From: Planctomycetota bacterium
GTDB lineage: Bacteria; Planctomycetota; UBA8108; UBA1146
Length of the DNA stretch: 45,307 bases
Reading direction: 5' to 3'
NCBI GenBank assembly: GCA_036338595.1
Contig: JAYZBV010000025.1
Coordinates: 1 to 45,307 of the forward strand
Shown here: positions 23,534 through 37,425 of the stretch, one piece after another
Numbering within the stretch: position 1 is the stretch's first letter
Layout of the letters: each line of letters opens with the position of its first letter
The notes under the pieces: model-generated
Database searches by the model: none
The model's input: only the letters and a program-made list of their open reading frames with translations
Told to the model about the DNA's origin: nothing
Translations under genes and position numbers: made by a program

Positions 23534-24147
23534 GCAGGAACTCTGCCGCATCCACACCTCCGCTGCTGATCTTGTCGCTCACCCTGTCTCTGGCACTACC
23601 ACTGCAGTCAGGCTGTGAAGGAGTCGCGCCGGCTCGTCACGACTCCGGAAGTGGTTCTGTCGCTTCTCAACTGGAACAAACGCTCTGGAGTCCCACTCTG
23701 CACTGGAGCGGCATTCGATTCCGATTTGAACTGACTCCCGGTGAAGAGAACCTCACCCCTCAATTCCTTTACGAGGGTAACTCTGACATCCTTCGAGTGG
23801 GCCAGCGGCAGGTAACTCTGATTCGAACCCGGTTCAAGATCGACGGAACCTATTTCGACTGGCCAGTAGAGAGCATCATCTGGATTCATCGAATCCCCGA
23901 CACCGATCGACCATTCTTTCGACGCGAAGGCGCCCTGCAACTGACCTGGGTCGGTAACGGCAAGCATGCGGTCGTGGAGGAGCAATGCCAGGACGGCACC
24001 ATCGTGTGGACAATGTCTTCTGCACGGATCACACGTCACCAGGACGGGACAGTTCTGTATCAGGGCCGGGGTCCCGATGTGACACGAAGCGGTCCGTGGA
24101 AGCTGCTGCTCGGCCCGCGTGGCGAGATCGTTGCGGGTTCATCGTGA
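23530..24147 (+). CDS. Hypothetical lipoprotein
   Basis: Hydrophobic stretch ending LQSGC (lipobox-like); beta-rich body; 4-nt overlaps with both neighbours. Confidence 0.65.
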   Translation: MSRNSAASTPPLLILSLTLSLALPLQSGCEGVAPARHDSGSGSVASQLEQTLWSPTLHWSGIRFRFELTPGEENLTPQFLYEGNSDILRVGQRQVTLIRTRFKIDGTYFDWPVESIIWIHRIPDTDRPFFRREGALQLTWVGNGKHAVVEEQCQDGTIVWTMSSARITRHQDGTVLYQGRGPDVTRSGPWKLLLGPRGEIVAGSS

Positions 24148-25220
24148 AGCCATCGCCTGCACCGGAACACCTCTTCGACCTCTCGCCAGAGCACCTCGAA
24201 AAACACCTCGAGTTGTGGTGCCAGCAACACAACCTTCCGGGTTACAGGGCAAAGCAAATCGGGCAGCATCTGTTCGAGGGCAGAACCTACGACCCCGCTC
24301 AGATGACATCGCTTCCTGAAACCGTTCGCCAGGAGCTTTCCGCTGGACTGCTTCGATCACCGCTGATCACCGCAGAGAAGTTGCACTCGTCCGATGGCAC
24401 CATCAAGTTCCGGTTCCTTCTCGAAGACGGCCTCTCCATCGAATCCGTCTGGATTCCTACGGATGATCGAGGAACCCTTTGTATCTCCAGCCAGGTCGGC
24501 TGCGCTGCGGGCTGCACCTTCTGCGCCACCGGTACCATGAATTTGACTCGCAACCTGCACTCTCGGGAGATTGTAGCGCAATGGCTCGCTGTTCACGCAG
24601 CAACCACCGCCGAGGGATTGTGCGGTGTGACGCAGGTCGTCTTCATGGGGATGGGCGAACCGCTCCATAATTATCCAGCGGTATCTCTCGCCATCGATTG
24701 GCTCTCTTCTGCAAAGGGATTTCATTTCAGTCCACGTCGTATCACCGTATCGACCGTCGGCGTTGTCCCAAAAATCAGGGAGCTGGTCAAGGACCACCCC
24801 CAGGTTCGTCTTGCAGTCAGCCTTCACAGTGCTATTGCGGAGACCCGAGACAGCATCGTGCCCATCAATACGCGCCACGATCTTGATCAACTCGGAGCAG
24901 TTCTGGAGGAGGTCAAGGACGACTCCCGCAGGATCAGCATCGAATATGTGCTGTTGCCCGGGGTCAACGATTCCGAGGAGGAAGCGATTGCGCTGGCCCT
25001 CTTCGCAGCGAGATGTGGCGCACACATCAACCTGCTTCCCTTCCACCCCTTCGAAGGTGCGCCCCATGCCGCTGCGGGAGCAGCAGAGGTGGGACGATTC
25101 CAGTCGATGGTTCAGAAGAACTACGAGGGCTCCGTCACTGCCCGTCGCAGCCGCGGCCTCGATATCGACGGAGCCTGTGGCCAGCTGGTGCTCAAGACGC
25201 GCCCAGATCCGTCGAGCTAA
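24144..25220 (+). CDS. rlmN: 23S rRNA (adenine(2503)-C2)-methyltransferase RlmN
   Basis: TLCISSQVGCAAGCTFCATG (radical SAM), VFMGMGEPLHN, DIDGACGQL; GTG at 24144 overlaps previous stop. Confidence 0.93.
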   Translation: MKPSPAPEHLFDLSPEHLEKHLELWCQQHNLPGYRAKQIGQHLFEGRTYDPAQMTSLPETVRQELSAGLLRSPLITAEKLHSSDGTIKFRFLLEDGLSIESVWIPTDDRGTLCISSQVGCAAGCTFCATGTMNLTRNLHSREIVAQWLAVHAATTAEGLCGVTQVVFMGMGEPLHNYPAVSLAIDWLSSAKGFHFSPRRITVSTVGVVPKIRELVKDHPQVRLAVSLHSAIAETRDSIVPINTRHDLDQLGAVLEEVKDDSRRISIEYVLLPGVNDSEEEAIALALFAARCGAHINLLPFHPFEGAPHAAAGAAEVGRFQSMVQKNYEGSVTARRSRGLDIDGACGQLVLKTRPDPSS

Positions 25221-25283: not shown

Positions 25284-26507
25284 TTAGCATCCATCGCCCA
25301 GAGCAGATTCGAGCTGGAGCAAATCCGGAATGTTGTTTGAATCGCGATCAAAAACCTTCGGATCCGGTTTCGGTTCTGGCTTCGGGTCTGGCTTCGGCAC
25401 CGGCTTGGGAGTGGGTTTCGGCTTCGGCTTTTCCCACACTGGCTTCGGCTTCGGCTTGGGCTTTTCCCACACTGGCTTCTTCTCGCCAGCCTCAGCCTCA
25501 CCTGCAGTCGCCTTACCCTCCTGCTCCGCAGCGCGAGCCGCTTCGCGTTCACGCCGCACCTCAGCAAAAGAGCGTCCTTCAGGACGACCAAAAAGCGTCG
25601 GAGAGACTCCCGAGTTGAGTGCGATCTCATCGTAGTTCTGTTCGAGACTCAGTTCCCCGTCCTCGAAGATCTTCTTGATGGTAGGAATCTTGATCCAGCG
25701 ATTTCGATCATCGCTGAAGCGGATTCGAGTGTACTCGCTGAAGAAGACTTCCTTCTTGATCACTGCCGGAGCCTGACCTTCGTTCCAGGTCTTGCGCAAC
25801 AGCAATCCGTCCTCTTCGGAGAATGCATACATCAGCACCTGGTTACCAGCAAAGGCTTTCAGTTCCACCATCTTGCAGGCAGTACCGAGGACCGTCTGGT
25901 CATTCTTCAGGGTGGCAACATAACCATTGTCCTGGAACGTGATGAAGAAGTCATCGATGTGCTTATCCCAGACAAAAACAATGAGAGTCTTGCCAGCGAG
26001 CGGAGACACCGCCCCCATCGCTTTGACCCATGCCTTTTCTCCGTCGTAAACCTGCACGAAGTTGAGCGGTTCGTTGTTCTTGGTCAGGCCGAGACCAGGT
26101 AGTTGCCATTCTTCTCGGATCATCAGCGCACCTTCACCGGTCCGCTTGAGGAAACGAGCCATCTTCATCACGGTCTCATTTGTAGGATCGATCTTCTTGT
26201 TCTTGAACCGTTCGACTCGATCAGTGATGGACAGCATCGTCTCGCGTCCGCCAACCGCTTCGAGGTACTTCTGGATCACCTCCATCGCAGCAGGATCACT
26301 CTTCGGAATTCCGAGAATGTCCCCATCCAGGATGTCATCCTCGTCGGCAGCCGGTTCCTTCGTTTCCTTGTCGGGGAGATCCACGGGCGCAGGATCCTGA
26401 ATGCGTTGAGTTGCAGCGGCCTGCTGGACCGGAGAGCTCCAGACCAGAAATGCCGCCAACAAAAAGAGGCCGGCGAGGTACCTTCCGGCGGGGGAAGCAG
26501 TATTCAT
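25284..26507 (-). CDS. Exported protein, LolA-like/outer-membrane lipoprotein-sorting fold, with Pro/Lys-rich tail
   Basis: Signal peptide; EVIQKYLEAVGG, QVYDGEKAW, EEDGLLLRK, LNSGVSPTLF patterns typical of LolA-like family; KP repeats at C-terminus. Confidence 0.65.
   Translation of the reverse strand: MNTASPAGRYLAGLFLLAAFLVWSSPVQQAAATQRIQDPAPVDLPDKETKEPAADEDDILDGDILGIPKSDPAAMEVIQKYLEAVGGRETMLSITDRVERFKNKKIDPTNETVMKMARFLKRTGEGALMIREEWQLPGLGLTKNNEPLNFVQVYDGEKAWVKAMGAVSPLAGKTLIVFVWDKHIDDFFITFQDNGYVATLKNDQTVLGTACKMVELKAFAGNQVLMYAFSEEDGLLLRKTWNEGQAPAVIKKEVFFSEYTRIRFSDDRNRWIKIPTIKKIFEDGELSLEQNYDEIALNSGVSPTLFGRPEGRSFAEVRREREAARAAEQEGKATAGEAEAGEKKPVWEKPKPKPKPVWEKPKPKPTPKPVPKPDPKPEPKPDPKVFDRDSNNIPDLLQLESALGDGC
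25357..25481 (-). repeat. Coding Pro/Lys repeat (KPVWEKPKPKP x2, PKPxPKP)
   Basis: GGCTTTTCCCACACTGGCTT at 25426 and 25459 (33-bp period) plus GGCTTC hexamer repeats. Confidence 0.85.
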
Positions 26508-26701: not shown

Positions 26702-27895
26702 TCAAAACGACCCGGAAACGTCACCTTTGGCCTCCTCAGGGCTGCTGGTGGCAGGAACCGGCGTCATCGGCCCAGGATCCCCCATCAAGTGCGCAAAACC
26801 CTCCCTGCGTAGCCAGGAGCGTACCGTCTGTAGAGGTACGAAGAGTCCCATATGAGGCACCACCATCGGAGACCTCTTGCCGTAGGTGTAGATCATGCTG
26901 CTGATTCCCACCAGCCTGCCATCGCCAGCGAGGAAGATCCCGCCGCCGGAGTTGCCGAAAAAGGTCGGCGCACTGACCATCCAGAAAACCTCATCGGCGA
27001 CAGGTTTGTACTGTGATGAGATCTCTCCGATGGTCGGTAGCGGCTGGTTTCCCAGGGGACAACCGACAGCATACACGGTGTCGAAAACCGACAGTTGAAG
27101 GCACGCTTTCTCGGTTGCCGGCTCTGCCAGGAAGGACCATTGCCGGGTCAACAGGACTCGCACCAGCGACAGGTCAGAGGCGGGCAAGGAGGCGATCTCC
27201 ACACCCTCATGGATTTCGCTTCCCAGTCGGCCAAGCTCTGGATCGAAGAACCGGATCTCGCGGACAACCACCTTTTCGCTGGAGAAATCACGCACTTCTT
27301 CAACGACATGGTATGCAGTCACGATCCACGTTGCCCACTGGTTTTCATCCACCTGATCACTGCTGACCACGACACCGCTTCCGACGGTACCGTTGCCTCT
27401 CAGTTGCACCACTGGGTAGATCATCCGTTCCACCTTGTTGCGGTGATTCCCGGGAACATACTGTCTCTGGGCAGGCGACTTTGCCGGACCCATCGCATCG
27501 ATTCTCGCTTCGATACGAGAATCCAGGGCTTCGATCTTCTGGTGCGTTTGATCGATCTCGTTATCGACCCAACGCTTCAATCCATCGCTGGTTAGATCCA
27601 GTTCTCTCATGATTCTGGCGCGCTCTTCCTCGAGAATCTGGCTCGAGAGTTCGGCCACGGGACTCGTTTCTGGAGCGATCTCGAAGTCACTGACTTCGGA
27701 GTTGATCACCACATCCAGTTCATCCTGCAGATCGGCCACGAATTGTGGCTGGGTAGCGCCGTGGTCCACGGTGCTGGATACCGCTTCGGCGGTCGCAACC
27801 TGCTCGGAGGCCATCGGAGAGATGGACACACTCCATAGCAGTGCCATGGCCACGAAGATGGCAAGTGCCGCGCGATTGGGCTGGTAGTCCTTCAA
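26702..27895 (-). CDS. Exported trypsin-like (S1) serine protease with N-terminal coiled coil
   Basis: Catalytic triad motifs IVTAYHVV, SDLSLV, GNSGGG; signal/anchor at N-terminus; no PDZ domain seen. Confidence 0.88.
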   Translation of the reverse strand: MKDYQPNRAALAIFVAMALLWSVSISPMASEQVATAEAVSSTVDHGATQPQFVADLQDELDVVINSEVSDFEIAPETSPVAELSSQILEEERARIMRELDLTSDGLKRWVDNEIDQTHQKIEALDSRIEARIDAMGPAKSPAQRQYVPGNHRNKVERMIYPVVQLRGNGTVGSGVVVSSDQVDENQWATWIVTAYHVVEEVRDFSSEKVVVREIRFFDPELGRLGSEIHEGVEIASLPASDLSLVRVLLTRQWSFLAEPATEKACLQLSVFDTVYAVGCPLGNQPLPTIGEISSQYKPVADEVFWMVSAPTFFGNSGGGIFLAGDGRLVGISSMIYTYGKRSPMVVPHMGLFVPLQTVRSWLRREGFAHLMGDPGPMTPVPATSSPEEAKGDVSGSF

Positions 27896-28065: not shown

Positions 28066-30843
28066 TCAGTTCTGATCCGCCTTCTGATCGGTCGACTCCG
28101 CATCGGTTGCGGCTTCCGATGGTGGCACCGAAGGGGGCACCATTGTTTCACCTGAATAGATCAGTTTCAGCAATCGATCGGGCACGTGCACGACCCGATC
28201 TGCGGGACGCCCGCCGGTCCTTTCCCGGACGGATTCCAGTTTCAGCGCCTGCTCGATCACCTGCGTCTTGGGAGCGTCCAGTTCTACCGTGATTCGATCC
28301 ACGATCTTCTCGTTGACCAGGACAGCGAGAGAGATCTCCGAAGGCTCGAGCAACTCTTCACTATGCTCAGGCCAGGGCTCCTGATCCAGTGCAGTCTGTT
28401 CGCCGATCTCTTGCCACAACTCGTGAGCCATGTGAGGCGCGAAGGGAGCCAGCAGCACGATAAATGTCTTGAGGGTCTGCCGGTCGACCTCCTCCAGGCT
28501 GAGTTCATCTCCTCGCAGCAACTTCACGAATTCCATGAAGGCACTGATCGCCTTGTTGAGGCGGAAATTACGAATCGCCCGACTCACACGCCTGACGAGA
28601 CGGTGCTTGGCAACCAGCACATTTCGGCTCACGAACCGTCCCTTGCCGTGGCGGTGCAGGATCATCTCGTGGGTTCGCTGAAGGAATCGGGCGCAGCCAC
28701 GCAATCCCTCATCATTCCACTCTGCATGGTCCTGAGGCGGTCCGAGGAACAGCAGGTGCAGCCTCATCGCATCGGCTCCATACTTTTCCAGGTACCCCTC
28801 CGCGAGCACTCGGGGTCCCCTGTGGGCACTGGCTGAATCCACATCCTCGGTGGCATCGGCGGCACGGATACGCCCCTGATTGAAGAGCCTGCGGAACGGC
28901 TCGCGCCGCGCCGTGATTCCCAGTTCCCTGAGAAAGTGGCTCACGAACCGGACATAGAGCAGATGCAACTCAGCATGCTCGATGCCGCCCACGCAGAGAT
29001 TCACCGGAGTCCAGTGCGCCAGTTGCCGGGGCGAGGCGATCTGTCCCTCGAGTCCGGGATCGAGTGACCGCAGGTGGGTCCAGCAGGAAGCGATCCAGTC
29101 CGGCATCGTATCGGTACAGCGCCTCGCGGATCCCCCGCATTTGGGGCACTCGGTCTGGATCCACTCCTCATAACTGGAGAGTCCACTTTCCCCTTCGACA
29201 GGTTCCTTCAGCTGATCGATTTCAGGAAGTTCCACAGGAAGTTGATCTTCCCGAACCGGCACCTGGCCGCACTCGGAACATTCAACGATGGGAATTGGTT
29301 CCCCCCAGACCCTCTGGCGCTCGAATGCCCAGTCGTGCAATTTCCAGTCGATGTGCGACTCGACCAGATCGCGCGCCTCCAGCGATGCTTGCATCGACCG
29401 CGCAGAGTCCGATCCATCGCCGCCCCTGCGACGTCCTGAGCGGCGCCTTCTTCTGCCGTGGTTCGACTGGCCCCTGCTCGACGGTAATCCAAAACTCTGT
29501 GCAAATTCCTTGTGCGCCGGATGTGCGGAAGGAATGCCGAGGATCGCTCCGAAACGAATCTCTGGCAGCACATAACTGCTGACCCAGATCGGCATCTTGT
29601 CGAGAGTGACTGGATTGAGGCAGTATCCACCGGTCGGGACTCCATCGGCATTCGAACGTCCAGTGATCCGTTCTCGTTCGCTGAGACTGCCACAATTATC
29701 GAGGTACTGCTGCACATCATCCTTCTGAATCGGATCGATGATTTTTTCCAGCAACGGATGCTCCGGGCAAAGAACCACGAAGGTCGCTTCCGCCAGGGCG
29801 TCAATTCGCCACGAGAAGACATCGAGCTCGTCCCAGCCATCGAGCAACTCTGCGCTGGCCTTGAGGGTCAGGCGAGTCCCCTCACGGCGACCGATCCAGT
29901 TCCGCTGCAGCAGTTTGGTACGAGCAGGCCATTTCAGCTGTTTCAATCCCGAGTGCAGAGATTCGGCGTAATCGGTGATGGCAACCTTCCAGCCATCTTC
30001 GTAGCGCACCAGCCCCTTTTCGTGGAGTTTCAGGAAGATCCACTGAGACCAGCGATAACACTCCGGATCGGAGCTGTTGAGTTCGTGATCCCAGTGCACC
30101 ATCGCGCCGAAGTAATGAAGTTGATCTCGCATCTTCTGGATGCCTCGCTCGACAACCTGCTGCGGCGGAATCTTCGCTGCTCGCGCTTCCTCCTCGATGG
30201 AAAGACCAAAGGAGTCCCAACCCATCGGGCGAAAGACTTCGCGTCCTCGAGATCGCTGATACCTCGCCACCACATCGTTGATGGCGATCCCCCTGAGTTG
30301 ATTGACGCTGAAACCGTCGAGGGAAGGATAGGGAAACATATCCAGACAGAAGAAGGGCCGTGTCGGTGGGTCGTCAGGAGCATGCGCGGACTCGGCAGAG
30401 TCTTCTTCGGCAGAGTCTTCTTCGGCAGAGTCTTCGTCGGTAGAGTCTTCGTCGGTAGAGTCTTCGTCGGTAGAGTCTTCTTCGGTAGAGTCTTCTTCGG
30501 TAGAGTCTTCTTCGGCAGATTCTTCATCTCCAGTGACATCGGCAGGAGCGTCCTCGGCAGTGGTCTCCTGGTCAGCGGTTTCTTCGGTTTCTACCCCGTC
30601 AACTGCTACTGCATCTGCGGACGCATCATCCGACGCATCATCCGATGCGGTCTCATCGGAGGTTGTCTCCTCGACAGAAACTTCTTCGGAAACAGATTCA
30701 GTGCCGCTGCCCGCATCGGTTTTCGACTCGCCACCCACTGACGAGGGAGCATCGCCGGAGTCGGGTTGAATCGGCGAGATGGGTGGATTCGCGAGCCAGT
30801 GCTCGCGCCAGCGGCGTTCCAGTTGCAGTAGATCGACCGACAA
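28066..30843 (-). CDS. Leucyl-tRNA synthetase paralog with degenerate HIGH/KMSKS/editing motifs (putative pseudo-synthetase)
   Basis: LeuRS landmarks LDMFPYPS, PMGWDSFGL, QRNWIGR, RQRVWGEPIP, GGIEHAELHLLY, YGADAMRL, LLAPFAPH; TTG at 30843 after GAGGAGG; uninterrupted frame. Confidence 0.9.
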   Translation of the reverse strand: MSVDLLQLERRWREHWLANPPISPIQPDSGDAPSSVGGESKTDAGSGTESVSEEVSVEETTSDETASDDASDDASADAVAVDGVETEETADQETTAEDAPADVTGDEESAEEDSTEEDSTEEDSTDEDSTDEDSTDEDSAEEDSAEEDSAESAHAPDDPPTRPFFCLDMFPYPSLDGFSVNQLRGIAINDVVARYQRSRGREVFRPMGWDSFGLSIEEEARAAKIPPQQVVERGIQKMRDQLHYFGAMVHWDHELNSSDPECYRWSQWIFLKLHEKGLVRYEDGWKVAITDYAESLHSGLKQLKWPARTKLLQRNWIGRREGTRLTLKASAELLDGWDELDVFSWRIDALAEATFVVLCPEHPLLEKIIDPIQKDDVQQYLDNCGSLSERERITGRSNADGVPTGGYCLNPVTLDKMPIWVSSYVLPEIRFGAILGIPSAHPAHKEFAQSFGLPSSRGQSNHGRRRRRSGRRRGGDGSDSARSMQASLEARDLVESHIDWKLHDWAFERQRVWGEPIPIVECSECGQVPVREDQLPVELPEIDQLKEPVEGESGLSSYEEWIQTECPKCGGSARRCTDTMPDWIASCWTHLRSLDPGLEGQIASPRQLAHWTPVNLCVGGIEHAELHLLYVRFVSHFLRELGITARREPFRRLFNQGRIRAADATEDVDSASAHRGPRVLAEGYLEKYGADAMRLHLLFLGPPQDHAEWNDEGLRGCARFLQRTHEMILHRHGKGRFVSRNVLVAKHRLVRRVSRAIRNFRLNKAISAFMEFVKLLRGDELSLEEVDRQTLKTFIVLLAPFAPHMAHELWQEIGEQTALDQEPWPEHSEELLEPSEISLAVLVNEKIVDRITVELDAPKTQVIEQALKLESVRERTGGRPADRVVHVPDRLLKLIYSGETMVPPSVPPSEAATDAESTDQKADQN
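30392..30526 (-). repeat. 15-bp coding tandem repeat, 9 units, encoding (E/D)EDS(T/A)
   Basis: TCGG(C/T)AGAGTCTTC(T/G) units starting 30392, 30407, ... 30512 (last unit slightly degenerate). Confidence 0.95.
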
Positions 30844-30940
30844 GGGCCTCCTCGATCCCAGGGCATTACCCGACGAGTCAGCCGGTCCCCCAGGAACGCA
30901 TGATCGTAGGTGCCAGAGGGTGCGGCGACAATCGGTTCCC

Positions 30941-30968
30941 TTGACCCAAGAGTGCACCGGGCTATCCT
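30941..30968 (+). promoter_or_regulatory. Putative sigma70 promoter for tRNA-Ala
   Basis: TTGACC-N16-TATCCT about 85 bp upstream of the tRNA. Confidence 0.55.
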
Positions 30969-31052: not shown

Positions 31053-31128
31053 GGGGCTGTAGCTCAGCTGGGAGAGCGCCTGACTGGCAGTCAGGAGGTC
31101 AGGGGTTCGAGCCCCCTCAGCTCCACCA
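31053..31128 (+). tRNA. tRNA-Ala(GGC)
   Basis: Cloverleaf GGGGCTG...CAGCTCCACCA, G3:U70, anticodon arm CCTGA-CTGGCAG-TCAGG, TTCGA loop, encoded CCA. Confidence 0.98.
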
Positions 31129-33298: not shown

Positions 33299-34930
33299 TT
33301 GCCACGGCAGGGGTATCTCCTGACAATGCGGGGACTTGAGGATCCAACATGCGAGCCTTTCGCAGCCGGGAAGAGAGATGCCTTGACGTTCCGAACCTGC
33401 CGATCGCCCCGCTGGCGTCGGTTCCTGTTTCCCTGTTCCCTCGTGGTGGCTCTGTGCACACACGGCCTCGTTCTGGCCCAGACAGCCGGATCCGATCCCG
33501 AACAGATATCGCTCCGGGATGTGGCCGTGGTGGTCCCCATCGATCAGCAGATCGACGATTCGGTCGTCCGACGCTTCGATGCCACCCTCGCCGAACTTCT
33601 CAAGCGTGAAGTCCGGATCGTCATCATTCAACTATCGACCCCCGGCGGAACCATCGATGCCAGCCGAAAACTGGCAGAGTCGATCGACAACCTGACCGAG
33701 AAGGGTGTCGAGACCTTCGGCTGGGTGCCCAACGGTCAGCAGGCCTACAGCGGTGGCACGATGGTGGCTCTGGCATGCCGAAATCTGGTGATGGGAGATA
33801 ATAGCCGCATCGGAGATGTGCAACCGATCGACATCTTCGGCAACGAGTTGCCGGAAAAGATCCAGACCACGGTCCGGGCAGACATGCGTCGCTGGGCGCG
33901 AGATCGTGGCTACCCCATCGCCCTCGCCGAGGCGATGGTGACCAAGGAGATCACGGTTCTGAAGGTCCGTACTGCAGAGGGGCGTACCCTCTACCTGACC
34001 GAGCAGGAGTTTCAGGATCTGCCGGAGCATGAACGCAATAGCGCCCAGACGCAGAGGATCGTCGAGCGAGGAGAGATCCTCACCATCGACGAGAAGGAAG
34101 CCTTCGAGTACGGCTTCATCTCCCACATCTGCCTCACCCGAGAGCAACTGCTGACCGATTACGGCCTGACCCAGATGCGAGCGCTGACCGCCGATGAGGC
34201 ACTGGGACGTCAACGCATCGGTACTCCCGGCGGCTTTGCCCTCGATGCATTTCGGGACTGGGGCCGTTTCATCAAGTTCTTGCTGATCTTCGGTGCGTCT
34301 CTGGCACTGGTGGTCGAGTTCAAACTTCCCGGTGTCGGACTCGGCGCTTCCCTATCGCTCGGCTTCCTGTGCGTGTTTCTGCTCAGCAGTTTTGCCGACG
34401 GCAATGTCGGTTGGGTCGAACTCTCCCTGTTTGGACTGGGCCTGGCACTTCTGGTGATCGAACTGTTCGTGATCCCCGGTTTCGGAATCTCTGGAATCCT
34501 CGGCCTGGTCATCGTGTGCGTATCTCTGGGTCTGTGCTACCAGCCCGTAGATGCGACACTGAGCTTGCGCCAGTTGAGCGAGGATTCGCTGCAGGTCGCT
34601 GGCGGACTGACCACCGGATTGCTGGCGCTGCTGATCGTCTCCTACATCCTTCCCGGACGCTCTTCGCAAAGCGGTTCTCTCATCGACAAATCAACCCTGG
34701 CCACCGACGATAAGGCGATCGCCTCGCCTGGATTCGAGGGCGGCGCACTGGAGGTTGGCCAGCGCGGTTCTCCTCTCCAGGATCTGCACCCTGCAGGAAA
34801 GGTGGAATTCGAGGGCACTCCCTTCGATGTGGTCTCCGACGGGGGCTACATCGAGAAGGATAGCCTCGTTGAAGTGGTCGAGGTCGAGGGCAACCGCATC
34901 GTCGTCCGTGCTGTCGTCGAGGAGGCCTGA
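33299..34930 (+). CDS. Long NfeD protein (ClpP/crotonase-like protease domain + TM + OB fold); start probably somewhat downstream
   Basis: LSTPGG, AYSGG (Ser), PEKIQ (Lys), IALAEAMV, ELFVIPGFGISG, DLHPAGKV...VVEVEGNRIVVR. Confidence 0.88.
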   Translation: MPRQGYLLTMRGLEDPTCEPFAAGKRDALTFRTCRSPRWRRFLFPCSLVVALCTHGLVLAQTAGSDPEQISLRDVAVVVPIDQQIDDSVVRRFDATLAELLKREVRIVIIQLSTPGGTIDASRKLAESIDNLTEKGVETFGWVPNGQQAYSGGTMVALACRNLVMGDNSRIGDVQPIDIFGNELPEKIQTTVRADMRRWARDRGYPIALAEAMVTKEITVLKVRTAEGRTLYLTEQEFQDLPEHERNSAQTQRIVERGEILTIDEKEAFEYGFISHICLTREQLLTDYGLTQMRALTADEALGRQRIGTPGGFALDAFRDWGRFIKFLLIFGASLALVVEFKLPGVGLGASLSLGFLCVFLLSSFADGNVGWVELSLFGLGLALLVIELFVIPGFGISGILGLVIVCVSLGLCYQPVDATLSLRQLSEDSLQVAGGLTTGLLALLIVSYILPGRSSQSGSLIDKSTLATDDKAIASPGFEGGALEVGQRGSPLQDLHPAGKVEFEGTPFDVVSDGGYIEKDSLVEVVEVEGNRIVVRAVVEEA

Positions 34931-34932
34931 GC

Positions 34933-35415
34933 ATGGAAACAATGGATTGGTGGCTACTGTCGGTGCTCTGCATCGCTGGCCTGACACTCCTTTTCCTGGA
35001 GGTCTTCATCCCCAGCGGAGGGATTCTTGCCATCGCTGCCGTGCTCTGCATCGGCTACTCCATCTTGGAGTTGTGGCTCAAGGATTATCAATTGCTCGCG
35101 GTCATCTGCGCAGGTTTCACGGTTCTCTACACCGTGGCACTCTTCCAGTTCTGGGTCAAAAAAATCGGTCTGCATACCAGCCTCGACGAGGTCGCGCTCG
35201 GTGACGATGTGCGTTCAGCACAGGAACTGATCGGCCAACGAGGCCTGGTGATGTCAGATCTTCGACCGGCAGGGATCGCCCTGATCGCTGGACGACGCCT
35301 CGATGTGGTCGCCAATTCGGGCTACATAGATAAAGGGGATTCGGTCGTCATCATCCAATCCGATGGCAATCGTATCCTTGTCAGGAAATCCACTGAAGAA
35401 TCTCAAGACGATTAG
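34933..35415 (+). CDS. Short NfeD family protein
   Basis: LEVFIPSGGIL; C-terminal OB fold DLRPAG...DGNRILVRK. Confidence 0.88.
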   Translation: METMDWWLLSVLCIAGLTLLFLEVFIPSGGILAIAAVLCIGYSILELWLKDYQLLAVICAGFTVLYTVALFQFWVKKIGLHTSLDEVALGDDVRSAQELIGQRGLVMSDLRPAGIALIAGRRLDVVANSGYIDKGDSVVIIQSDGNRILVRKSTEESQDD

Positions 35416-35451
35416 AATCATGACGGCAAGACCGTCGGACAGGAGTTCGCG

Positions 35452-36516
35452 ATGGGTACTATTCCAGATCTAGCAACGACACTCTTGCTGGGGCAAACGA
35501 GCAACCCGATAGTCAACGTGGTGCTGCTCTTCCTCGTGATCGCCATGGGAGTGGTGCTGTTCATCTTCTTCATCACGTTCGGAAGATTGTACATCCAGGC
35601 CCTCTCCTCCGGAGTCAAGATCAGCGTCTTTGCCTTCATCGGAATGTGGCTCAGAAGGGTGAGCCCGAGAATCATCGTCGATAGCCTGATCATGTGCACC
35701 AAGGCGGGCATCAAGGATGTTCATACCAACAAGCTCGAAGCGCACTACATGGCCAAGGGCAATGTTAGTCGAGTGGTTCGATCGCTGGTTGCAGCCCACA
35801 AGGCGAACATCGATCTCAACTTTGACCAGGCTGCCGCCATCGATCTGGCCGGAAGAGATGTGCTCGAAGCGGTCAGAACCAGCGTGCTTCCAAAGGTCAT
35901 CGATGCCCCTTCGCGCGAAGGGGCACGCACCACGGTCGACGCAGTGGCAGGAGATGGCATCCAGTTGCGGGCACGAGCACGGGTCACCGTCCGCACCAAC
36001 CTGGCGCGTCTGGTCGGAGGTGCCACGGAAGAGACCATCATCGCTCGCGTGGGTGAAGGTATCGTCACCACCATCGGATCGGCTACGACTCACAAGGATG
36101 TGCTGGCCAATCCCGATCTGATGTCGAAAAAGGTGCTGGAGAAGGGCCTGGACTCGGGAACCTCTTTCGAGATCCTCTCCATCGACATCGCCGATGTCGA
36201 TGTCGGCGAAAACATCGGTGCAAAACTACAGGCCGAGCAGGCGGAAGCAGACAAGCGGGTGGCACAGGCGTTGGCAGAGAAGCGCCGTGCACTGGCTGTT
36301 GCCCAGGAACAGGAAAATGTCGCCAAGATCGCCGATAACAGAGCCAAACTGGTTCTCGCAGAGGCCGAAGTTCCTCTGGCCATCGCCGATGCATTCCGGC
36401 AAGGCAACCTGGGAGTGATGGATTACTACCGCCTCAAGAATCTCCAGGCAGACACCTCGATGAGGGAGTCCATCGGAGAAGATGACGAAGGTGGTTCCGA
36501 TGCCATCCACGACTAG
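35452..36516 (+). CDS. floA: Flotillin-like protein FloA (YqfA family)
   Basis: [73 protein letters not shown]. Confidence 0.95.
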
Positions 36517-36531
36517 AAGGACAAGACACCG

Positions 36532-37209
36532 ATGAAGGACATGAGTTGGATCTATCTGCTGATCTTCGTGGTACTTCCGATACTCAAGCGTGTCCTTGAG
36601 TCGCGGTCCGTTGCCAAGAGAGAGAAGGCGCGCCAAAGCACGCTGCAAGGAAGCAGGAGTGAACCAGCCTGGTCCCCTTCCACGGCCGAAGATGAAGATG
36701 AGCCGCTGACCCTGGCCGAGATGGAGGAGGAAGGCTGGATCGCTGCAGATCCGCGCCCGGTCGCCTCTTCCCGACCGCCGATACCAGCCGAAATCCGCAC
36801 CTTGCAGGAACTCGGTGGCGGCTGGGTCGAGGTGCCCGGAGTGACCTCCGGCGACAGCACCACGACCATCCACGACCCCGCCGCGACCAGACCCGCACCG
36901 CTTCCGCGCGCCGATCAGCATGGAGTGCCACCTCATCCCATCGATCTGCTGGAGCATATGCGACAGGAGATGGAGCAGGACGGGTTTGCCTCCGACCCCG
37001 TTCAGGACCCCTACCAGGTCGACGATCTGGAATCCGACCCCGTCCACGGTCCAGGGGCCTACGCTCTGCCCGCTGCCGGACATAAGCGCCACGGCAGGTT
37101 CCAACATGGCAGTGGTCGTCGCTGGAAATTGAGTCGGAGTGAACTGCGGGAACGCCTGGTATGGCGAGAGATTCTCGGCCCACCTGTGTGCTTGCGCGAA
37201 CCCGAGTGA
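36532..37209 (+). CDS. Hypothetical membrane-anchored protein, YqfB-like position downstream of floA
   Basis: N-terminal TM; low-complexity middle; C-terminal LRERLVWREILGPPVCLR motif typical of floA-downstream genes. Confidence 0.7.
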   Translation: MKDMSWIYLLIFVVLPILKRVLESRSVAKREKARQSTLQGSRSEPAWSPSTAEDEDEPLTLAEMEEEGWIAADPRPVASSRPPIPAEIRTLQELGGGWVEVPGVTSGDSTTTIHDPAATRPAPLPRADQHGVPPHPIDLLEHMRQEMEQDGFASDPVQDPYQVDDLESDPVHGPGAYALPAAGHKRHGRFQHGSGRRWKLSRSELRERLVWREILGPPVCLREPE

Positions 37210-37270
37210 AACCGCTCGCCGATACCGTGACCTACCGAGGAAGCCTCTGAGCCATCGATTGCAGGAGCAG

Positions 37271-37299
37271 GTGACGAAAGGACTACTGACCACTACAAT
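37271..37299 (+). promoter_or_regulatory. Putative sigma70 promoter for tRNA-Leu
   Basis: GTGACG-N17-TACAAT 40 bp upstream of the tRNA. Confidence 0.5.
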
Positions 37300-37338
37300 G
37301 GCCACCCGGTGGTGATCAGAAACAACGCAGCAACATGA

Positions 37339-37425
37339 GCCGGAGTGGCGGAATTGGCATACGCGGCGGATTCAAAATCCGCTGGCCTCACGGCCTTGTG
37401 GGTTCGAGTCCCACCTCCGGTACCA
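37339..37425 (+). tRNA. tRNA-Leu(CAA)
   Basis: GCCGGAG...CTCCGGTACCA, anticodon arm GCGGA-TTCAAAA-TCCGC, long variable arm GGCC-TCAC-GGCC, encoded CCA. Confidence 0.97.

Follow-up and report, generated by a model that had tools for sequence, protein, structure and literature searches.

What does a leucyl-tRNA synthetase (LeuRS) do once its ATP site has gone? A 45,307-nucleotide stretch of Planctomycetota DNA (contig JAYZBV010000025.1; hereafter the window, to which coordinates refer unless a contig is named) raises this question through an open reading frame at 28,066–30,957 on the minus strand, where all parts of the gene given below also lie. The frame has 963 codons, scores 584 bits against TIGR00396 and aligns over its full length with Thermus thermophilus LeuRS. 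An earlier reading made from the sequence alone had proposed that the leucine pocket was kept while the ATP site was lost, and that the protein might sense leucine or Leu-tRNA, or sequester tRNA. Here, we report that the gene is a predicted class-wide pseudo-synthetase derived from LeuRS, and that the core job of its family is probably RNA binding, independent of leucine.

A LeuRS paralog without ATP and editing sites

The window protein retains the LeuRS fold and domain order and is of the bacterial type (584 bits against TIGR00396 versus 92 bits against leuS_arch). Its structure, modeled from 82 sequences with a mean predicted local distance difference test (pLDDT) score of 87.9, matched LeuRS structures with template modeling (TM) scores of up to 0.86 (T. 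thermophilus, 2bte). For residue counts, we aligned 65 orthologs from its order with 109 canonical LeuRS, of which 40 and 79 sequences remained after reduction at 90% identity, excluding partial proteins shorter than 700 residues and two partial loci; mean identity was ~57% within both sets. Loss of the ATP site was borne out, as none of seven ATP-motif positions was kept across the 40 orthologs. SVNQ stands in place of HIGH (HMGH in T. thermophilus) at 30,298–30,309, with each His, Gly and His found in 0/40 and the Q invariant, and SASAHRG stands in place of the KMSKS loop at 28,816–28,836, most of which was modeled at pLDDT below 50 (Met and catalytic Lys both 0/40). Within the CP1 editing domain (29,512–29,817) the TT and GTG..HDxRD motifs are erased: in the alignment to T. 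thermophilus LeuRS the window protein has neither the editing threonines nor the catalytic aspartate, and the aspartate was found in 0/40 orthologs. New residues are fixed in the ATP site throughout the order (Q, C, H and S/T, each 40/40).

We found the paralog in 58 of the 59 genomes of one Planctomycetota class, as 54 strong matches and four divergent copies of family f4 that were assigned to the paralog family by synteny. The one exception, G025, is likewise missing the neighboring protease, so that an assembly gap is the likely cause. In a 401-genome set from the phylum, the best score outside the class was 182 bits, versus at least 250 for class paralogs, although this set is a sample and its low scores are not proof of absence. 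Two LeuRS-like matches were present in 51 of the 59 class genomes; seven had the paralog only and one a canonical copy only. The seven are 55–88% complete and include the source assembly (G000, 88% complete), where the paralog is the sole LeuRS-like gene. We rejected a true absence of canonical leuS from that assembly in favor of an assembly gap, since relatives carry the canonical gene: a second LeuRS-like match occurs in each of the other 8 genomes of the genus and was read as canonical in 5 of those 8. HIGH-bearing second copies were read directly at 31 loci. The dN/dS ratio was ~0.07–0.13 in six pairs with relatives; dS was nearing saturation in the more distant of these. As judged from these alignments and rates, it is shown that catalytic and editing residues are lost, that a working LeuRS coexists and that purifying selection acts.

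In a tree of 33 selected rows all paralogs formed one clade (support 100/100), and more than one of its deep branches contained members that keep the pocket. One of these, P0139 (MBN1420086.1), joins f4 weakly (81/62); since it keeps the pocket and groups in this way, the pocket appears to be ancestral and to have been lost once or twice. In this deep-branching protein the pocket is intact, RLEQ stands in place of HIGH, a GKFVS motif is present and the C-terminal domain resembles that of f4. Canonical LeuRS comes in three different types within the class, which suggests repeated replacement. The canonical LeuRS of the order carries Ser at a pocket position that is Phe or Trp elsewhere (MPGSAGSS; 15 non-redundant sequences).

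A bundle motif shared by near and far orthologs

We compared the near orthologs, those of the order, with a far set of 18, made up of genome loci of families f5–f7 and further proteins and excluding the four f4 rows, P0139 and two duplicates. In the far clade the pocket is almost entirely gone (T. thermophilus numbering; M40, Y43, S504 and H545 each 0/18, H541 1/18, E540 2/18); the RQR motif was found in 0/18 and the tRNA 3’-end residues are all lost. Since these 18 orthologs nevertheless keep the gene and a family-specific motif in the anticodon-binding helix bundle, leucine sensing cannot be the central task of the family. That the far clade does without the pocket residues also suggests that the near clade keeps them for function rather than for folding.

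Six residues, R574, G578, V581, S582, K589 and E673 (numbers 574–693 are counted from window position 30,372), are invariant in 58/58 near and far orthologs and rare in canonical LeuRS, and F580, E628, S671 and R693 are near-invariant. Of the 21 family-specific positions common to both groups, 15 fall in residues 574–693, which cover the bundle, the linker and the start of the C-terminal domain, and the shared motif residues sit in loops and helices of the bundle and linker. In the window protein the motif reads RxxxGxFVSRxxLVxKH at 28,603–28,653 (R, G, V, S and K invariant), followed by EEVD in the next bundle loop (28,483–28,494) and WPxxSxELxxP in the linker into the C-terminal domain (28,342–28,374). 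The helical anticodon-binding domain further contains FRLNKAISAFMEF (28,528–28,566) and LLAPFAPH (28,432–28,455); the C-terminal tRNA-binding domain, its fold intact, extends over 28,159–28,329 and includes LAVLVNEKIVDRITV (28,285–28,329). The net charge of the first three bundle helices was +10.7 in near and +8.8 in far orthologs (f4 included), whereas the canonical sets gave -2.3 and 0.0. Far orthologs also carry insertions of 136–257 residues, mostly acidic, within the Rossmann fold.

The leucine pocket across the order

We take M40, S504, Y507 and H545 to be leucine-pocket residues. Pocket roles of F41, Y43, D80, F501, E540 and H541 have been described (PMC13454842; PMC5059758), as have the roles of R416, R418 and R424 in LeuRS (PMC6614811). 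The window protein holds nine of the ten pocket residues, counting Trp for F501, but has lost Y507 and lacks the ZN1 lid. MFPY (30,328–30,339) supplies M40, F41 and Y43; GWDSFG (30,205–30,222) contains the amino-group-binding Asp80; MPDWIASCWT (29,077–29,106) keeps W501, which is Phe in T. thermophilus, and S504 while replacing Y507 with Thr; and EHAELH (28,963–28,980) keeps E540, H541 and H545. All four motifs, together with LLAPFAPH and CSEC...CPKC, had been named in the sequence-only reading and are present in the frame, in the register confirmed by the T. thermophilus alignment. It had placed them with the RNA-binding domains in 28,960–30,345; the pocket motifs do lie inside that span, whereas FRLNKAISAFMEF, LLAPFAPH and LAVLVNEKIVDRITV lie beyond it. 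The second Zn site is kept (29,137–29,280; CSEC at 29,269–29,280, CPKC at 29,137–29,148), and is not diagnostic because the CPKC cysteines occur in 18/26 ZN1-bearing orthologs and 60/79 canonical LeuRS. On the tRNA 3’-end side, the A73/C74-binding motif KLHDWAFERQRVWG (29,302–29,343) keeps the R424 equivalent, with His at the R418 and Glu at the S423 equivalent.

Within the order, nine of the ten pocket positions were kept in at least 85% of the 40 orthologs (M40, 39; F41, 40; Y43, 35; D80, 40; W501, 40; S504, 39; E540, 39; H541, 40; H545, 40), the tenth being Y507 (26). This compares with 63 of 290 among the positions variable in canonical LeuRS (Fisher p=1e-5), with 92 of 142 other canonical-invariant positions (p=0.17, not clearly better kept) and with 28 of 52 polar invariant positions (p=0.04, marginal); because the sequences share ancestry, the p-values overstate the differences. 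Pocket residues therefore stand above background conservation at the order level, with five of them at 40/40. The claim of selective retention holds against variable positions and does not clearly hold against other invariant ones; in these alignments the sharply selective trait is the loss of ATP and editing sites, rather than retention of the pocket. On the 3’-end side, the R424 equivalent and the DWxxxRQ motif were each kept in 40/40. The NEE motif of ZN1, which contacts C75 in Escherichia coli LeuRS (PMC13454842), was kept in 22 of the 26 ZN1-bearing members, and CxHC occupies the position of the ATP-binding Arg in 22/26. The E. coli study also describes stable shielding of Leu as requiring ZN packing (PMC13454842).

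Erosion of the pocket in the gene’s own subclade

The window gene belongs to a subclade of 14 non-redundant sequences from genera g1, g5 and g7 and close proteins, which we compared with the other 26 of the 40 orthologs. ZN1 is deleted in 14/14 of the subclade, with the junction at 29,989–30,012 in the window protein and the deletion confined to g1, g5 and g7; the ZN1 knuckle is replaced in 3 further orthologs of the 40. Y507 was found in 0/14 (T, G or A instead) and Y43 in 9/14 (Asn in the other 5), versus 26/26 for both in the remaining orthologs. The R418 equivalent is His in 14/14, three neighboring positions are fixed as acidic, and the window copy carries acidic substitutions beside both the pocket and the 3’-end site. 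By these substitutions, the pocket is eroding in the subclade of the window gene itself.

The same genera differ in their leucine tRNAs. A tRNA-Leu(AAG) pattern was found in 22 of the 23 genomes of g1, g5 and g7 (GAG 0/23), while GAG was found in 32 of 36 others; in the source assembly G000 this tRNA lies on contig C37:58659-58742 (L143). Leucine tRNAs with A34 are rare in bacteria and have been described in Lactobacillales. The clade with AAG for GAG is the one with ZN1 deleted in the paralog, which amounts to one event; one further candidate AAG match lies in G044. We considered tRNA-Leu(AAG) as the family’s substrate and rejected it as a core function, since AAG is confined to g1, g5 and g7 and the family is class-wide.

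Leucine biosynthesis and auxotrophy

The LeuA regulatory domain was found in 0/34 genomes of the pocket-keeping order versus 24/25 in the pocket-less families, and LeuC in 0/34 versus 21/25. The genes ilvD, hisD, trpB and argH were absent in 3/3 order genomes tested and present in 2/2 others, and aroC was present in 5/5; in the leuB check, all 5 genomes scored below the cut-off. Families f1–f3 of the order show an apparent multi-amino-acid auxotrophy even at genome sizes of 5–8.6 Mb. The order underwent one shift to general auxotrophy, which is confounded with its every other trait. A HisZ-like control of LeuA was rejected for this order on the 0/34 counts for LeuC and the LeuA regulatory domain.

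What the paralog might do

The best explanation, to which we assign a probability of about one half, is a class-wide dead LeuRS that would hold RNA through its basic bundle and C-terminal domain, with the pocket as an ancestral accessory site. As its charge and domains suggest, the paralog would bind RNA, most likely tRNA (tRNA-Leu or a tRNA-like fold), over a contact surface formed by the C-terminal domain together with the anticodon-binding bundle, which is remodeled and strongly basic, and it would hold or present the bound RNA with no charging step. The pocket for leucine and the 3’-end motif would have been inherited; both would still be under selection in the auxotrophic order, where they possibly grip the aminoacyl end, whereas prototrophic orders would not need them and the window gene’s own subclade would have lost part of them to erosion. 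Several points weigh against this explanation. The match between pocket and auxotrophy favors a larger role for the pocket than an accessory one, and the four f4 orthologs lack even the bundle motif. Several Arg, Lys and Glu residues of the motif might pair in a network of salt bridges inside the protein instead of facing RNA. Moreover, with three canonical LeuRS types in the class, no co-evolving protein or RNA partner was found.

An order-level sensor of leucine or of Leu-tRNA charging is possible, though we doubt it: a ligand in the pocket would switch the binding of RNA or a partner and signal amino-acid supply in an auxotroph that scavenges peptides, with a possible coupling to the downstream protease. 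Such a sensor would fit the nine retained pocket positions and the R424 equivalent at 40/40, the NEE motif kept while CxHC replaces the ATP-binding Arg (each 22/26), the missing LeuA regulatory domain and LeuC, and the precedent of HisZ (PMC9734150). However, one loss of biosynthesis set beside one or two losses of the pocket gives almost no phylogenetic replication, and the auxotrophy is general rather than specific to leucine. In the window gene’s own subclade the lid that leucine shielding requires in E. coli is deleted, along with the changes at Y507, Y43, the R418 equivalent and the three acidic positions, and homologs of the protease outside the class have a LeuRS-like neighbor at 0/17 loci. 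The sensor idea thus survives at the level of one order, is weakest in the window copy and does not describe the family’s core, given the far clade. Of the two halves of the sequence-only reading, the alignments support tRNA binding or sequestration, which is plausible, better than the sensing of free leucine.

We consider it unlikely that the bundle patch instead docks a class-specific protein, making the paralog a scaffold or regulatory subunit whose remainder is structural baggage with long acidic spacers. The invariant motif does include hydrophobic Phe and Val residues and mixed charges, and far orthologs combine acidic Rossmann insertions with loss of every 3’-end residue; yet the ~10 positive charges gained on the tRNA face of LeuRS fit RNA better, no partner gene was identified, and the two genes downstream look exported. 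More improbable still is a Leu-tRNA-dependent transferase or hydrolase, in which Leu-tRNA would be bound in transfer geometry, with the acceptor in the vacated ATP site relined by S/T-V-N-Q, the Cys of LCVGG, the His of LRLH, and HRG. Although these residues are fixed in the order and SbzA is an IleRS-like aminoacyl transferase (PMC6331615), SbzA has near-canonical HIGH and KMSKS motifs and lies in a biosynthetic cluster, of which there is none here; in addition, P0139 keeps the pocket without the new ATP-site residues, far orthologs lack the site and the window copy lacks ZN1. We give very little credence to the gene being either the genome’s working LeuRS with unusual motifs or a decaying pseudogene. 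Its score exceeds the TIGR00396 cut-off and its assembly has no other LeuRS-like gene, but that assembly is 88% complete, a second match is present in all other genomes of the genus and both HIGH and KMSKS are lost. Decay is excluded by the open frame, by a dN/dS near 0.1 and by the synteny seen across the class.

Gene start, insertions and neighborhood

The probable start is a TTG at 30,843, giving 925 residues, as inferred from alignment of the N-terminal ExxW helix and an upstream GAGGAGG. Ahead of the Rossmann fold lies an acidic, low-complexity insertion of ~146 residues (30,360–30,800; 38% D/E), within which a 15-bp tandem repeat codes for EEDST/DEDST (30,380–30,520). An Arg-rich insertion sits within the editing domain (29,425–29,457; net +7 to +12 in family f1).

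Downstream of the paralog, on the same strand, is a trypsin-like serine protease that begins with a hydrophobic N-terminal stretch (26,702–27,895, minus strand), kept at 28/30 loci and at 24/27 in a second locus set, followed by a third gene (25,284–26,507, minus strand; 22/27 loci) whose resemblance to ‘outer membrane lipoprotein-sorting’ clusters is a lead only. Both downstream genes have the hydrophobic N-termini expected of exported proteins. Upstream and divergent is a tRNA-Ala(GGC) (31,053–31,128, plus strand; 26/30 loci); in G047 the tRNA-Ala beside the paralog was called with anticodon CGC instead (L162:3228-3303). An RlmN-like radical SAM gene (23,985–25,220, plus strand) converges on the operon in 17/27 family loci, and genes for NfeD, an NfeD-like protein and FloA, with tRNA-Leu(CAA) after them (33,299–37,425, plus strand), lie upstream in many loci of the order. 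We considered descent from an ancestral leuS locus and rejected it: the same synteny was not seen at 10 canonical leuS loci outside the class, nor at any of the 17 outside-class protease loci examined (out of 18). Two further duplications are possibly binning artefacts, namely two similar ValRS-like genes in G000 (contigs C1 and C79; 7% contamination) and two canonical LeuRS in G018 (contigs C4 and C18).

Significance and comparison with known systems

The paralog is real, conserved and undescribed in the literature searched, and it belongs among the dead synthetases; no publication on the family was found in a search that covered subscription journals in part and main texts without supplements. 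LeuRS has been described as among the most stable synthetases (PMC5388404), and the impaired LeuRS duplicates found in the literature searched come from archaea and retain part of their chemistry. That a class of bacteria has kept a LeuRS of full length with neither active site left suggests a role for the fold that is not yet described. This family forms a natural series, with pocket and lid, with pocket but no lid, and with no pocket. It is also an annotation trap, because its members pass the TIGR00396 cut-off and several database records name the paralog leucine--tRNA ligase. Perhaps, and we offer this with reserve, a LeuRS has been turned into a tRNA-holding regulator with a new bundle surface, whose pocket in the auxotrophic order would be a stand-alone, ribosome-independent sensor of leucine supply or tRNA charging.

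With bacterial LeuRS (T. thermophilus, 2bte and 1h3n; E. coli, 4aq7) the paralog has in common the domain order, the fold, most pocket residues, the CP2 3’-end motif, the bundle and the C-terminal domain. In contrast to these enzymes it has lost HIGH, KMSKS and the editing residues, as well as ZN1 in the window copy, and has gained the invariant basic bundle motif and the acidic and Arg-rich insertions, and it coexists with a canonical enzyme. HisZ, a HisRS paralog that is the regulatory subunit of ATP-phosphoribosyltransferase, is likewise a dead synthetase reused for amino-acid-dependent regulation, but it has a class II fold and regulates a biosynthetic enzyme (PMC9734150), whereas the pocket-keeping order lacks leucine biosynthesis. 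SbzA is a class Ia synthetase paralog that, like the present one, exists beside a housekeeping copy; it differs in keeping HIGH- and KMSKS-like motifs and in its location in an antibiotic cluster (PMC6331615).

The paralog also resembles archaeal LeuRS duplicates that lose charging and retain tRNA affinity (PMC4005665; PMC9437257). LeuRS2 of the halobacterium Natrialba magadii is also a second full-length LeuRS, in which charging and editing have collapsed and affinity for tRNA-Leu is kept; it differs in its trace activity, near-intact KMSKS (one Lys to Ser) and archaeal C-terminal domain (PMC4005665), while our paralog is bacterial with both motifs erased. LeuRS-I of Sulfolobaceae binds tRNA-Leu without aminoacylating it and has a disrupted editing domain, but it still forms leucyl-adenylate, which the paralog’s lack of ATP motifs sets apart, and is archaeal-type and of unrelated origin (PMC9437257). 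By analogy, the paralog may work like LeuRS2 and LeuRS-I without being a member of either group, being of bacterial type and devoid of both ATP motifs.

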